A program made the translations under genes and the position numbers. The notes beneath the pieces are model-generated. The model was not told the origin of the DNA and made no database searches. It was given only the letters and a program-made list of their open reading frames with translations. Below are positions 8,178 through 12,199 of a stretch of 64,000 bases of DNA, piece after piece; position 1 is the first letter of the stretch, and each line of letters starts with the position of its first letter. The DNA comes from Christensenellaceae bacterium (lineage in GTDB: Bacteria > Bacillota > Clostridia > Christensenellales > SZUA-584). The stretch spans positions 6,881-70,880 of the forward strand of contig CAXXFB010000001.1 in assembly GCA_963674545.2 (NCBI GenBank), read 5' to 3'.

Positions 8178-8685
8178 TTAGTTTTGGAGGCAATATTTGA
8201 TGAAACCTATTGCCAATATATCATTTTCTGCAAAAACAGCTGTTGGGCCGTTCGTAAGCTTTATGAATTTGGACGCTGCGCCAAATCCTGTTTGCAGACG
8301 GAAACCACAATGATATTCCATTTCATTATAAATCTTAAGATGCGAGTTTTTGAGCGCCGTGTGAAACCCTTTTTGTTTTTCCTTTGAAACTCTGTCTAGG
8401 CCGCCGATATATCCGATTCTTTTATGCCCCCAAGGAAATAAAATGATTCGTTGCTGTTATCGTGCCTTCAACAACGTTTATACTGATGCAATTGAATTTT
8501 GGATCTGTGAGATTCCAGCTTATCATTATAATTGGAATATGCTGACTGTTATCGATCAGTTCCGCTAAAGATTCATCGTTGTCAACAAGGCATAAAACTA
8601 TTCCGTCAAAATGCTGAATCGATTGATTTATAAAGTGTTTTTTAAGTATATCCAGCTCATTGTTAGCGGTATATAATACAGGCAC
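8178..8685 (-). pseudogene. LacI-family regulator remnant (ligand-binding core only; frameshifted, truncated at both ends)
   Basis: ORF 8422-8685 ends ...NCISINVVEGTITATNHFISLGA*. After the C5 run at 8427-8431 the reading continues in another frame to the stop at 8178-8180: GHKRIGYIGGLDRVSKEKQKGFHTALKNSHLKIYNEMEYHCGFRLQTGFGAASKFIKLTNGPTAVFAENDILAIGFIKYCLQN*. These are typical LacI/PurR sugar-binding-fold motifs. No N-terminal HTH and no C-terminal third. Confidence 0.7.
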
Positions 8686-8879
8686 AAGGTTATTTTAATG
8701 GAAGATTCTTTAATGGATAATGAGTAATACAACTTTGATGGTTGAAACTAATTAAATTTTATACTAAGAGTTTTATCATGTTTGGAGTGAAGGTTGACAA
8801 GAATTTAAAGGTTTAATTAATTTAATACTTAGTATTTTAATAAAGGCGAATAAAAAAGAGTTAAATCTTATAAGGGGTA

Positions 8880-9227
8880 AAAACTTCATAAAGGGTTCAA
8901 AAAAGCTTTTAGCGGGGAATAGCAGCCTGATGATATGAGAAATGGGGCAATATGAAGTATAAGTATAGGAACAGGCAATTTTGGTGTAGAGGGTACTATG
9001 TAGATACAGCAGGTAAGAATGCTAAGAGAATAAAGGAGTACATCCAAAACCAGTTAAAGCAGGATGAACTGGGAGAACAACTAACGATGGAAGAAATAGA
9101 CTCGTTTACAGGTAGCACGTAACAGCTTTTCGCGTGCGCCAGACCGTACCAACGCCCTTTAGGCGTGGCTAGTATTAAAGGTCTATGCACGAAAGTCATG
9201 ACCACCCGTTTTACGGGTGGTCATGAC
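8880..9227 (+). mobile_element. Decayed IS200/IS605-family copy (3' third of tnpA plus right-end hairpin)
   Basis: 8952-9122 encodes MKYKYRNRQFWCRGYYVDTAGKNAKRIKEYIQNQLKQDELGEQLTMEEIDSFTGST*. This matches the C-terminus of the intact TnpA at 24755-25225 (LKYKYGNRHFWCRGYYVDTVGRNARVIEEYIKNQLQED...DPFTG). An out-of-frame GNSSLMI stretch (~8915-8935) matches GKSSLMI of that protein. The terminal hairpin GTCATGACCACCCG-TTTTA-CGGGTGGTCATGAC (9195-9227) is shared with the intact copies. The left boundary is approximate. Confidence 0.75.
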
Positions 9228-9996
9228 TGTATTATTATATTTTCCTCAGTGCAAACTTTTAGTAGAAGTCAGTATCTCTCGGAACTAATCTCTCTGGATA
9301 ACTATAGAGCCAAATTCATTGTAATCAGTTCTAAATGTCTCTGGTTTACTTCTTATATCTTAAATTGACAAGAGTTAATTGATTTTTAATGGGAAATTAA
9401 TGTATTCCTATCGCTTATATTATTCAAGCTAAAAAAATCAATAAAAAGTTAAAGATTATATGGCTTATATATTTAATATACGGATTTAAGTCTAAAAGAT
9501 GTCATATATATCTAAAATAAATTTTTCGAGATTGAAAGCGGCTTAAAATGTCGTTAGTTTTTTGCTTGCTATATCCAATAGGATTAAATTCATAAAAAAT
9601 ATTAAATCAATTAAGCATATTGTCGAAGCTTGCCCTGTTTGTCTCTATTAATGGTTACGTAACCATATATGAAAAAGCCCATTTAAATGTAATATTTTAT
9701 ATTAAACCCCGTAGTTTACTAAATTTAAAATTATTTAGCTATTAAAAGTATGAAAAATCCGATAAAAAATATTTAGTGCTGCTAAATCAACTATTTCTAT
9801 TTTGTGTACTCCTAAATATCTTAAAGTGTAAAATATGAAAATAGTATAAAATCGAATGAAATCAATAAGAATGTTAATTCAAATAAAAGATAAAGATAGT
9901 ATAATCAAGTAAACAATTTGTAAGTAAATTATTAAACTTAAAATAAAATAATACTTAAAAACAACTTCGCAATTATATTTTAGGGGAAGAAAGCAG

Positions 9997-10134
9997 ATGA
10001 AAGCGTTAAAGAAAATTCATTTAGGTGAGGATGGTGTACAACTTCTCACAAATGTTCCAGCTCCTGTTCCGGAAAGCGCCAGTTCTGTAGTTATACCGGC
10101 GCCGCATGAAGACATTTACAAGGCGATATATTAG
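9997..10134 (+). CDS. 45-codon micro-ORF whose C-terminus resembles a BMC-H tail (possible relic or small shell-associated peptide)
   Basis: GGGGAAGAAAG RBS then ATG. Product: MKALKKIHLGEDGVQLLTNVPAPVPESASSVVIPAPHEDIYKAIY*. SSVVIPAPHEDI parallels [12 protein letters not shown] and [12 protein letters not shown] of the two BMC-H genes downstream. Below the ORF-track size cutoff. Confidence 0.3.
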   Translation: MKALKKIHLGEDGVQLLTNVPAPVPESASSVVIPAPHEDIYKAIY

Positions 10135-10165: not shown

Positions 10166-10501
10166 ATGGATGCATTAGGAATGGTGGAGACGAGAGGGCT
10201 TGTCGGGGCGATCGAAGCGGCCGATGCTATGGTAAAGGCAGCGAACGTTGTACTTGTCGGCAAGGAGCAGATAGGTGCAGGGCTCGTTACCGTTATGGTG
10301 AGGGGAGACGTTGGAGCTGTCAAAGCTGCAGTCGAGGCCGGAAGCGCAGCGGCGGGAAGAGTCGGCGAGCTAAAGAGCACTCACGTTATACCGAGGCCGC
10401 ACAGCGATGTTGAGGGGATTTTGCCAAAGCAAAAGGCGGACAAAAAAGAAGCTCCAAAACCGGCAGCAAAACCTGCTGAGAAACCAACAGAGAAGAAGTA
10501 A
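10166..10501 (+). CDS. BMC-H hexameric shell protein (PduA/EutM family) with a Lys/Pro/Ala-rich C-terminal tail
   Basis: [26 protein letters not shown]...[21 protein letters not shown]...[15 protein letters not shown] is the canonical PF00936 signature. It carries an extra tail, [36 protein letters not shown]. Confidence 0.93.
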
Positions 10502-10774
10502 ATGTATACCGGCAAAGTCGTAGGGAGCGTGGTCTGTACAGTCAAGGACCCTTCGCTCAAAGGGATAAAACTAAAGCTGGTGGAAGTGATCGAGAATGGG
10601 AAGCCGGCGGGAGTGATCGTTGCGTCTGACGCTACACGCCAAGCGGGCAACGGAGATTTTGTATATCTTATCGGTTCCAAAGAGGCAGGTATGCCGTTTC
10701 TTGATCAAAATAAGCTAAACCCGGTAGACGCTTCAATTATGGGGTTTATCGATGAATATAATGAGAATATTTAG
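10502..10774 (+). CDS. BMC-P pentameric vertex protein (EutN/CcmL/PduN family)
   Basis: MYTGKVVGSVVCTVKDPSLKGIKLKLVEVI...DFVYLIGSKEA...NPVDASIMGFIDE follows the EutN pattern (M..G.VVG.VV.T.K...L.G.KLL.V). The start abuts the upstream stop (TAAATG). Confidence 0.88.
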   Translation: MYTGKVVGSVVCTVKDPSLKGIKLKLVEVIENGKPAGVIVASDATRQAGNGDFVYLIGSKEAGMPFLDQNKLNPVDASIMGFIDEYNENI

Positions 10775-10792
10775 TTTTGAAAGGAGCTAAAC

Positions 10793-11068
10793 ATGGAAAA
10801 GCAGGCATTAGGAATGGTTGAAACAAAAGGGCTCGTCGGAGCGGTCGAGGCAGCTGACGCTATGGTTAAGGCAGCGAATGTTACGCTGGTGGGGAAAGAA
10901 AAGATAGGCTCTGGGCTCGTAACCGTTATGGTTAGAGGCGACGTCGGCGCTGTCAAGGCAAGCGTGGATGCAGGCGCTGCTGCTGCCAAGAGAGTCGGAG
11001 AGCTGTTCAGCGTACATGTGATTCCAAGACCACATGAGGATGTTGAGTCGATACTTCCGGGCAAATAG
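10793..11068 (+). CDS. BMC-H hexameric shell protein (PduA/EutM family)
   Basis: 91 aa. 72 of 85 hand-aligned residues are identical to the 10166 product. Same PF00936 signature and [11 protein letters not shown] end. AAAGGAG RBS. Confidence 0.93.
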
Positions 11069-11079
11069 GAGAAGAAGAC

Positions 11080-11367
11080 TTGAAGATTGGCAGAGTAGTG
11101 GGCAACGTTGTGTCCACTGTTAAAAACGATACACACTACGGGTATAAGTTGTTGCTGATTGAATTTATAGATGCGCAGGGCAGAGCGACTTCGCCCAGGC
11201 AGATAGCGTTTGACGGCGCCGACGCAGGCGTTGAAGACATAGTGCTCATCAACGTTGACGGAGGCGCCGCAAAGATGATGCTTGAAGACGACGAGGTCAT
11301 TGCCGATCTTACTATATGCGGAGTGCTTGATCACTTCGCTATTGATGGGAAAACTATGCATCTATAA
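11080..11367 (+). CDS. BMC-P pentameric vertex protein (EutN/CcmL family), TTG start
   Basis: MKIGRVVGNVVSTVKNDTHYGYKLLLIEFIDAQG...DIVLINVDGGAAK...ADLTICGVLD closely parallels E. coli EutN (MKLAVVTGQIVCTVRHHGLAHDKLLMVEMIDPQG...). AGGAG RBS 8 nt before TTG. Confidence 0.88.
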   Translation: MKIGRVVGNVVSTVKNDTHYGYKLLLIEFIDAQGRATSPRQIAFDGADAGVEDIVLINVDGGAAKMMLEDDEVIADLTICGVLDHFAIDGKTMHL

Positions 11368-11434
11368 TTAGTATAACGAAAATACTATAGCCTGTTTTTG
11401 GCTGCAGTAAATTTAACAAGATGCGAGGATTGGC

Positions 11435-12199
11435 ATGGATTTAAATAACATTGATGTTAGAGAAATAGTTGAAAAGGTAACTAAGGAAGTCAACAAACGG
11501 ATAGGCAGCCAGGGGTTGAATATATCAGTTGCTGCTCATAACCTTTCATACGCTGAAGTGGCAGCTTCGATAGAACATTCCCTGCTTAACCCAGATATGA
11601 CGAGAGAGAAGATGATATCGGGATGTGCTGATGTCAAAAAGTACAGGTTTGCTAACGTTTGTGCTACGCCGTATTTCTGCTTTGACGCCGCAGAGGCTCT
11701 GCGTAGGAGCGGCATCCCGGTATGTGTGCCGGTGGGTTTCCCTCACGGAGCTGCAAGCACCGCTGCAAAGCTCACTGAAATTCGTGAAGCTATAATGAAT
11801 GGCGCAGGCGAGCTTGATTTGTCGCTGAATATCGTCGGAATAAAGTCTGGTGACTGGGACAAGGTCGAAAAAGACCTGCTAGAGATGATATTTGTGACAG
11901 GAGGCAGGGCGAAAGTCAAGGCTATATATGAGCAGGGGCTACTCTCCGAAGACGAAAAGATCAAGACGCTGACGCTTATAAAGCGATGCGGCACTGATTT
12001 TATAAAGATAAGCAATGCGCTGACTGGTAAAAAGGCGGCAGTGGAGGACGTCAAGTTCGTGCGCTCTATTGTTGGCAAAGGTATTGGCATCAAGATAGAC
12101 GGCGGTGTGAAGACTGCGGAGACGGTAAAGGAGCTTTTAGCTGCAGGAGCTGATCGCATAGGGGCCAGCGCTTCGGTCAAAATAGTTTCCGAAGGATAG
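11435..12199 (+). CDS. Deoxyribose-phosphate aldolase (DERA/DeoC) family protein, divergent, with ~34-aa N-terminal extension (putative BMC encapsulation peptide)
   Basis: Aligns end to end with the canonical DeoC at 55104-55805 (IEHSLLNP / IDHTLLKP; ELDLSLN / EVDMVVN; VKAIYEQG / VKTIIETC; FIKISNAL / FVKTSTGF; KIDGGVK / KASGGVR). Both catalytic Lys and the Asp are kept. The N-terminus NIDVREIVEKVTKEVNKRI is an amphipathic-helix-like segment absent from the canonical copy. Confidence 0.85.
   Translation: MDLNNIDVREIVEKVTKEVNKRIGSQGLNISVAAHNLSYAEVAASIEHSLLNPDMTREKMISGCADVKKYRFANVCATPYFCFDAAEALRRSGIPVCVPVGFPHGAASTAAKLTEIREAIMNGAGELDLSLNIVGIKSGDWDKVEKDLLEMIFVTGGRAKVKAIYEQGLLSEDEKIKTLTLIKRCGTDFIKISNALTGKKAAVEDVKFVRSIVGKGIGIKIDGGVKTAETVKELLAAGADRIGASASVKIVSEG

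Follow-up and report, generated by a model that had tools for sequence, protein, structure and literature searches.

We analyzed a 64,000-nucleotide stretch of the genome of a Christensenellaceae bacterium (assembly GCA_963674545.2, contig CAXXFB010000001.1, positions 6,881 to 70,880; here called the window), in which a gene of the deoxyribose 5-phosphate (dR5P) aldolase (DERA) family lies next to genes for bacterial microcompartment (BMC) shell proteins. The open reading frame (ORF) at 11435-12199(+) encodes a 254-aa protein, P0001. A Shine-Dalgarno-like GAGGA, recognized by reading the sequence, is present at 11425..11429 (+), 5 nt before the ATG at 11435. Four shell genes, in the order BMC-H, BMC-P, BMC-H, and BMC-P (10166-11367), adjoin the P0001 gene upstream. 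The window also contains a housekeeping DeoC (P0002; 55104..55805, +), which served as the comparator: its translation of 233 aa has the canonical motifs and no N-terminal extension, and it scores 277 bits against TIGR00126 (deoC).

P0001 and the housekeeping DeoC share 39% identity over 219 aligned residues, and ∼31 N-terminal residues of P0001 precede the aligned core. An AlphaFold2 model of P0001, built on a 119-sequence alignment, has a mean predicted local distance difference test (pLDDT) score of 92 and shows a DERA (beta/alpha)8 barrel from residue 39. This barrel (residues 39 to 254; 11549..12199, +) is also supported by TIGR00126, by a residue map to Escherichia coli DeoC, and by Foldseek, in which the top matches to the model were all DERAs; 6d33 aligned with a target-normalized template modeling (TM) score of 0.91 to 0.95 and a root mean square deviation of 1.4 Å. 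A PDB search found no solved structure within the P0001 clade, the best match being a canonical DERA with 39% identity and 162 bits. For residue numbering, we mapped P0001 onto E. coli DeoC from NC_000913. The kept residues (E. coli = P0001) are D102 = D128, K137 = K162, K167 = K191, K201 = K220, G204/G205 = G223/G224, and S238 = S245. Asp102, Lys137, and Lys167 are carried by ELD, VKAIYE, and FIKIS, respectively, and Lys201 by IKIDGG; this map agrees with the original prediction, made from the sequence of the window, that the catalytic Asp and both Lys residues are retained. The equivalents of D102, K137, K167, and K201 show no variation among 119 homologues.

The barrel is preceded by an encapsulation-peptide-like amphipathic helix (residues 8 to 25; 11456..11509, +), which was delimited from the AlphaFold2 model, the hydrophobic moment (muH), and conservation. 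The segment NIDVREIVEKVTKEVNKRI of P0001 lies at nt 11447-11503. The muH value for residues 7 to 21 is 0.68, a value that only 1.8% of shuffles reach, and V8, I11, V12, V15, V19, and I23 form a hydrophobic face inside a 120-degree arc. V15, T16, and V19 are ≥90% conserved in the 119 homologues, and I11 and V12 are the majority residues. A variable linker follows (residues 26 to 38; 11510..11548, +; GSQGLNISVAAHNLS); it is short and poorly conserved, with pLDDT values of <50 at residues 26 to 31 and variable or gapped alignment columns. An N-terminal extension of ≥25 aa is present in 91 of 93 class A members and absent from the housekeeping DeoC. The hydrophobic pattern phi-xx-phi-phi-xx-phi-phi is found also at the N termini of the aldehyde dehydrogenase (AldDh), the eut_hyp protein, and the canonical DERA of sister loci, as well as at the C terminus of a class II aldolase in a PVM-like locus of this genome (L002). 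These features of the P0001 N terminus agree with encapsulation peptides as defined in the literature (PMC11585597). An encapsulation-peptide-like N terminus followed by a Gly/Ser linker had been proposed; the structure prediction bears out the first part, giving an amphipathic helix and not a disordered segment, whereas the linker is variable and not Gly/Ser rich. Encapsulation of P0001 is thus a computational prediction, well supported by the predicted helix and linker, their conservation, the motif shared with other cargo, and the position in the operon.

The active-site differences lie in the part of the barrel that binds the substrate phosphate. Relative to E. coli DeoC, P0001 carries T168I, T170N, G171A, K172L, A203D, R207K, and S239A; in its own numbering, the remodeled distal pocket residues are I192, N194, A195, L196, K199, K200, D222, and A246. 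P0001 departs from the canonical phosphate cradle (Gly171, Lys172 or an aromatic residue, Gly204, Gly205, Ser238, and Ser239) by the changes G171A, K172L, and S239A and by the Asp at 203, while G204, G205, and S238 are kept. Among its 119 best homologues, which are 53 to 86% identical and 241 to 257 aa long, the motifs K-I-S-N-x-L, I-K-I-D-G-G, and E-H-S-L-L-N-P-D are invariant or almost so, as are F-P-H-G-A-A-S-T and K-A-I-Y-E-Q-G. The pocket residues H104, Y165, Q167, N194, and D222 of P0001 are likewise (near-)invariant.

To place these changes, we used a tree set of 298 DERA-family sequences, comprising 150 representatives at 50% identity drawn from 1.8 billion proteins and the proteins of 80 loci. 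All Asp203 sequences and their derivatives without the Schiff-base Lys fell into a single clade of 105 leaves, with FastTree support of 0.84 to 0.96; an IQ-TREE fast search on a 73-sequence subset gave the clade an SH-aLRT value of 87.8. The 193 DERAs outside it all have Gly at position 171 and either Thr or Ser at 170; 191 of them have Thr at 168, and at 203 they have Ser or Ala but never Asp. In the core clade, position 171 is never Gly. The members of the clade have N-terminal extensions, and most were sampled from BMC loci. Its sister group contains canonical DERAs of the Firmicute type, including P0002 and the tagged canonical DERAs from the same loci. These sequence comparisons indicate that T168I, T170N, G171A, K172L, and A/S203D mark a monophyletic DERA subclade. 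Two of the three motif changes first reported, KTSTGF to KISNAL and KASGGVR to KIDGGVK, are real and are unlikely to have arisen by chance, because they are (near-)invariant in the 119 homologues and absent from the 193 nonclade DERAs; the BMC-linked variants that carry them do group together on the phylogeny. The third, GTSSG to GASAS, had been read as a further rewiring. We dropped it, since GASAS is the most frequent form of this motif in canonical DERAs (58 of 193, versus 22 of 193 for GTSSG) and retains Ser238.

We then surveyed the contigs that carry homologues and the 80 loci from GTDB genomes; counts are given for the 60 loci with ≥7 kb of upstream sequence. The hosts of this operon type are mostly Christensenellaceae/Christensenellales, with some Treponema, Synergistales, and Oscillospiraceae; one of the loci, L084, is from Christensenella hongkongensis, a cultured member of the Christensenellaceae. 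The gene order is phosphotransacylase (PTAC), eut_hyp-like, BMC-P, acylating AldDh, PduS-like, PduT-type BMC-T, BMC-H, BMC-P, BMC-H, BMC-P, and DERA-like; the eut_hyp-like (flavoprotein-like) protein has a weak partial match to TIGR02536, under the cutoff. A BMC-P gene lies immediately 5′ of the DERA-like gene in 58/60 loci, and the full PTAC-to-AldDh core is upstream in 55/60. A second DERA-family gene is present in 55/60; its product is an N-terminally tagged canonical DERA (TIGR00126, 274 bits). The orthologue from the same genus (L009 of genome G001) is 80% identical to P0001 and belongs to a complete operon. Scans of 10 kb around L009 and L011, the closest relatives, turned up no other aldolase; a GntR/UTRA regulator, downstream of the DERA-like gene, is the only flanking gene that the two share. 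Within the locus itself, L015 also is without a canonical DERA.

The canonical tagged DERAs have features of their own. In L003 (2716-3552) and ∼40 other loci, they bear a C-terminal extension of ∼25 aa with CxxCxxCxxxCP and the ending ...NEY. The Cys motif resembles a single 4Fe-4S ferredoxin site, which appears unusual on a DERA encoded beside PduS and PduT. About half of the DERAs with this tail also have G204T, R207N, and S239K (KASTGIN...GTSKG). Many canonical DERA domains (in P0134-P0231, ∼400 to 530 aa) are C-terminal to an N-terminal part of ∼250 aa, an architecture in line with published RPI-DERA and flavoprotein-DERA fusions from SPU3 loci and Hodarchaeales.

On balance, we lean toward the view that P0001 is a tagged, active aldolase that has been re-specified away from dR5P. 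It would be a class I aldolase of DERA fold that is competent for catalysis and bears an N-terminal encapsulation peptide. Members of its clade are encoded, as a conserved feature, at the end of a metabolosome operon whose hosts are mostly Christensenellales. The amphipathic helix at residues 8 to 25, on its flexible linker, would dock the enzyme to the shell or to the cargo core. The Schiff-base machinery is intact, with Lys191 aided by Lys220, Asp128, and Lys162, and the cradle for the 5-phosphate in ordinary DERAs is remodeled by the five substitutions that mark the subclade. The enzyme may release acetaldehyde or condense it with a partner aldehyde bound by some means other than the canonical phosphate cradle, most likely a nonphosphorylated 2-deoxy-aldose or a 3-hydroxy-aldehyde. 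The acetaldehyde would be handed on to the encapsulated AldDh and PTAC.

Mutational work on DERA gives this view its biochemical footing. In the E. coli enzyme, the 5-phosphate is contacted directly by Lys172, Ser238, and Gly205 and through water by Gly171, Val206, Gly236, and Ser239 (PMC8403123). The mutants G171A, G171S, G204A, and S239E have lower dR5P cleavage and higher acetaldehyde aldol activity, and S238D moves activity to free deoxyribose with a >100-fold loss on dR5P; S239D also is among the mutants that trade dR5P activity for activity on acetaldehyde or free deoxyribose. Phosphate is bound less well when negative charge lies near the pocket (PMC8403123). We infer a shift in specificity because the natural G171A and the Asp beside Gly204 resemble laboratory mutants that lose dR5P activity. 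A substrate other than dR5P, already raised in the original prediction of an encapsulated class I aldolase, is plausible by sequence and analogy, whereas the encapsulated part of that prediction has been strengthened by the helix, its conservation, and the operon position.

Several observations weigh against this view. P0001 scores 179.4 bits with TIGR00126, above the curated equivalog cutoff of 117.3, although the housekeeping DeoC (277) and, in sister loci, the tagged canonical DERA (274) score ∼100 bits higher. Ser238, Gly204, and Gly205 are kept, and in the clade, a conserved basic pair, Lys199-Lys200, occupies the canonical Gly-Gly site; a phosphate or another anion (carboxylate or sulfonate) could still bind differently, via this pair. 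The orientation of Asp222 toward the pocket is deduced from beta-strand alternation only, and both the targeting and the substrate of P0001 are inferred from sequence and models. Taken together with the absence of another aldolase near the L009 and L011 operons and with the report that N-terminally tagged SPU DERAs act on dR5P (PMC11585597), the deoC score, the kept residues, and the basic pair could mean that P0001 is a plain dR5P aldolase, the signature enzyme of an SPU-like BMC, whose motif changes reflect drift or a phosphate site rebuilt with Lys199/Lys200. We consider this unlikely. Gly171 is universal in the nonclade DERAs and missing from the core clade, Asp203 occurs nowhere else, and in the E. 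coli enzyme, both G171A and negative charge near the pocket cut dR5P activity. Moreover, 55/60 loci co-encode a canonical tagged DERA, beside which a second dR5P enzyme would be redundant, and the SPU partner RpiB is found in just 2 of ∼85 related loci. Two DERA paralogues with different pockets could thus share one compartment.

A different role is suggested by relatives of P0001 that have lost the Schiff-base Lys. BMC-domain genes occur at three places in this genome, namely, L001, L002, and the window. The last gene of the BMC operon in L001 (C1:1.44 Mb) encodes P0003 (L001 9427-10164, −; G000:C1:1439426-1440163), a tagged DERA-fold protein with Val in place of Lys167 and Glu in place of Asp102. 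Its homologues with 93%, 49% (P0275), and 40% (P0276) identity in best local alignments are all without the Schiff-base Lys and keep the N-terminal helix; P0276 also is without Asp102 and Lys137. P0276 is encoded by the terminal gene of a locus syntenic with L001, which continues with GntR, a zinc-dependent alcohol dehydrogenase (Zn-ADH), a 2-hydroxyacid dehydrogenase, a class II aldolase of the fructose-bisphosphate aldolase (FBA) type, an FGGY kinase, and an ABC transporter. The trees place the Lys-less forms in or next to the P0001 clade. Judged by its sequence, P0003 is probably a conserved pseudo-enzyme cargo. Because the Lys-less relatives keep both the helix and the operon position, their conservation suggests that the tagged DERA fold is useful to the compartment beyond catalysis, and they provide a case in which the conversion of enzymes into assembly factors could be tested.

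Extended to P0001, this would make the terminal DERA-fold protein mainly structural, a tagged oligomer that nucleates or cross-links the core, with catalysis secondary or vestigial. Dead tagged BMC enzymes have precedents (cited in PMC11585597), and relatives in the same position (P0003, P0275, and P0276) have stayed conserved without the Schiff-base Lys, with Asp102 and Lys137 often lost as well. We nevertheless hold it to be very improbable for P0001: in the 119 sequences of its subclade, the four catalytic residues and H104, Y165, Q167, N194, and D222 are (near-)invariant, and the dN/dS ratio of 0.047 is the pattern expected for an active site under selection. The scaffold reading stays alive for the family, but P0001's own subclade looks catalytic. 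The two roles might also be combined, in that Christensenellales-centered metabolosomes would possess, encoded by the invariable final gene of the shell block, a natural DERA retuned off phosphate that works beside a canonical tagged DERA (on, e.g., free 2-deoxyribose or 3-hydroxybutanal, or in acetaldehyde self-aldol chemistry) and doubles as a core-organizing component. The latter role would account for lineages in which the tagged fold has outlasted every catalytic residue; we regard the combination as rather doubtful, if somewhat less so than a plain dR5P aldolase.

The shell genes next to P0001 are the remains of a larger operon. The first encodes a BMC-H protein of 111 aa with a Lys/Pro/Ala-rich C-terminal tail (10166..10501, +; PF00936, 100.8 bits) that is 85 to 86% identical to the first BMC-H of L002 and L003. 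It is followed by a 90-aa BMC-P (EutN/CcmL) pentamer protein (10502..10774, +; PF03319, 62.8 bits; 93% identical to its L002/L003 counterparts), a 91-aa BMC-H (10793..11068, +; PF00936, 103.3 bits; 97% to its L002/L003 counterparts), and a 95-aa BMC-P (EutN/CcmL) pentamer protein directly 5′ of the DERA-like gene (11080..11367, +; PF03319, 71.7 bits). Upstream of these, tblastn and blastn revealed a PduT-type BMC-T gene of which only the 3′ end is left (10086..10134, +; the ∼16 last codons); this relic marks the left breakpoint. In tblastn, BMC-T residues 164 to 181 matched 10078-10131 at 83%; in blastn, homology of the window to the intact operons L003, L002, L009, L011, and L015 began at 10086/10087 and ended at 12198. 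Because this homology starts inside the end of BMC-T, we conclude from the sequence that the cassette is the leftover tail of a 5′-truncated operon. ORF 9997-10134 (45 codons) is a chimera of the ∼16 last codons from the deleted BMC-T and unrelated sequence and, on this evidence, is not a new micro-gene. Intact relatives have an AldDh gene and three BMC-P genes, whereas the window cassette has two BMC-P genes and no AldDh, PTAC, or PduS gene in cis. A self-contained minimal or satellite compartment is ruled out by the start of homology inside BMC-T and by the full operon around the same-genus orthologue, and annotating the cassette as such would be wrong.

Upstream of the breakpoint lies AT-rich DNA with an IS200-like insertion sequence (IS) relic and LacI fragments or a LacI pseudogene. 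The LacI-family fragments are on the minus strand at 8178-9238, beside an IS200-like TnpA C-terminal fragment (8952-9122), and a perfect 35-nt hairpin at 9194-9228 was found at several other sites in the genome. Elsewhere, at C1:2659413-2659544, an isolated fragment of 42 codons matches residues 184 to 227 of the DERA-like protein at 73 to 74% identity. No BMC genes lie closer than 10 kb to it, and by its sequence, the fragment is another remnant of a decayed BMC locus.

These surroundings of IS relics and pseudogenes, with no AldDh or PTAC in cis, count against a working P0001 in this genome, and the window copy may not be expressed. The cassette could be a relic of an IS-mediated deletion, unexpressed or without a compartment, whatever the biochemistry of its aldolase. 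The breakpoint inside BMC-T, the missing genes and upstream debris, the absence, 3′ of the cassette, of the GntR gene that relatives carry after the orthologue, and the additional DERA-like fragment all fit such a relic, as does the distribution in the genus, in which G001 has the full operon and G002 lacks the gene altogether. On the other side, all five ORFs of the cassette are intact, with dN/dS values versus L003 of 0.025 to 0.074 across the five genes (0.047 for P0001), and P0001 agrees with the consensus at 81 of the 82 columns that are ≥90% conserved. A promoter-like site at 9878-9905, upstream of the cassette, and the Shine-Dalgarno-like site are also present. We give a functionless cassette a substantial chance, though one short of even.

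The third BMC locus offers a way in which P0001 could still be used. L002 (C1:1.866 Mb; G000:C1:1856000-1875999) is a PVM-like locus with genes for a DeoR regulator, a histidine phosphatase, a C-terminally tagged class II aldolase, PTAC, eut_hyp, BMC-P, AldDh, PduS, and shell proteins. It stops at the last BMC-P gene, with ∼1 kb of apparently noncoding DNA where relatives hold the DERA-like gene, and so has no DERA-like gene of its own. Loading of P0001 in trans into the L002 compartment is conceivable because the L002 shell proteins are 86 to 97% identical to those of the window. In this genome, the operon has been cut at 10086, and P0001 could still be loaded in trans into the PVM-like compartment or may belong to a decaying relic. 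The message for this genome is the more modest one that the cassette is an operon remnant.

Tagged DERAs in BMCs are already known, but the pocket-altered subfamily seems undescribed. N-terminal tags on BMC-linked pfam01791 aldolases have been cataloged for SPU2, SPU3, SPU4, SPU6, and HO satellite genes (PMC8217296, Supplementary Data 2), and an SPU6 DERA has been shown experimentally to cleave dR5P and retains the canonical catalytic residues (Dwyer, Sutter & Kerfeld 2024, PMC11585597). Our literature search found no description of a pocket-altered (Asp203/Ala171) BMC DERA, of its Lys-less derivatives, or of BMCs in Christensenella; this is weak evidence, as most subscription-journal papers were out of reach.

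The closest known systems are the SPU loci (Axen 2014, PMC4207490; Sutter 2021, PMC8217296; PMC11585597). Like the SPU DERAs, P0001 is a pfam01791/DERA-fold class I aldolase encoded beside shell genes, with an N-terminal amphipathic helix and linker that housekeeping DERAs do not have; SPU loci and intact P0001-type loci also share an acylating AldDh, PTAC, the PduS/PduT pair, and the BMC-P triplet. SPU DERAs, however, have canonical active and phosphate sites, whereas P0001 belongs to a separate clade with T168I, T170N, G171A, and A203D, and the P0001-type gene usually accompanies a canonical tagged DERA instead of replacing one. SPU loci are defined by the partner RpiB (pfam02502); RpiB-like ORFs were found in only 2 of ∼85 P0001-type loci and not in the window, and the two RpiB genes of this genome lie elsewhere. 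A classical SPU locus is ruled out for the P0001 operon type by this lack of RpiB. DERA has been stated to occur, among BMCs, in SPU loci only (PMC11585597); contrary to that statement, DERA-fold cargo would extend beyond them.

PVM-like/GRM5-like loci of Firmicutes (Axen 2014; Sutter 2021) resemble the P0001 operon type in their PduL-type PTAC, AldDh, PduS, PduT-type BMC-T, and several BMC-H and BMC-P genes, and L002 of this genome adds the defining class II aldolase and DeoR to shell proteins 86 to 97% identical to those of the window. PVM-like loci are, however, defined by the pfam00596 class II aldolase, while most P0001-type loci carry DERA-family aldolases instead; the window cassette contains no pfam00596 gene, the one found being in L002. 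The published descriptions of PVM-like loci that we compared (Axen 2014; Sutter 2021) make no mention of a DERA-fold gene. Dead tagged cargo, such as the second AldDh of GRM1, the gamma-carbonic anhydrase (CA) domain of CcmM, and the SPU RPI, finds a parallel in the Lys-less clade members, e.g., P0003, which keep the tag and the operon position; P0001 differs in retaining all catalytic residues.

Engineered DERAs of E. coli and Klebsiella (G171A, G204A, S238D, and S239D/E; PMC8403123) are altered in the same pocket as P0001 and in the same direction, by bulk at position 171 and negative charge by the Gly204-Gly205 loop; in the laboratory, these changes move activity off dR5P and onto nonphosphorylated aldehydes. 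They carry single to triple laboratory mutations, whereas the P0001 clade has at least five natural, conserved substitutions and its Asp at 203, not at 238 or 239. Activity on nonphosphorylated aldehydes is a property sought by protein engineers for the synthesis of statin side chains and 1,3-butanediol. If the remodeling of the pocket truly shifts specificity, the P0001 clade would be a natural DERA lineage selected for such aldehydes.

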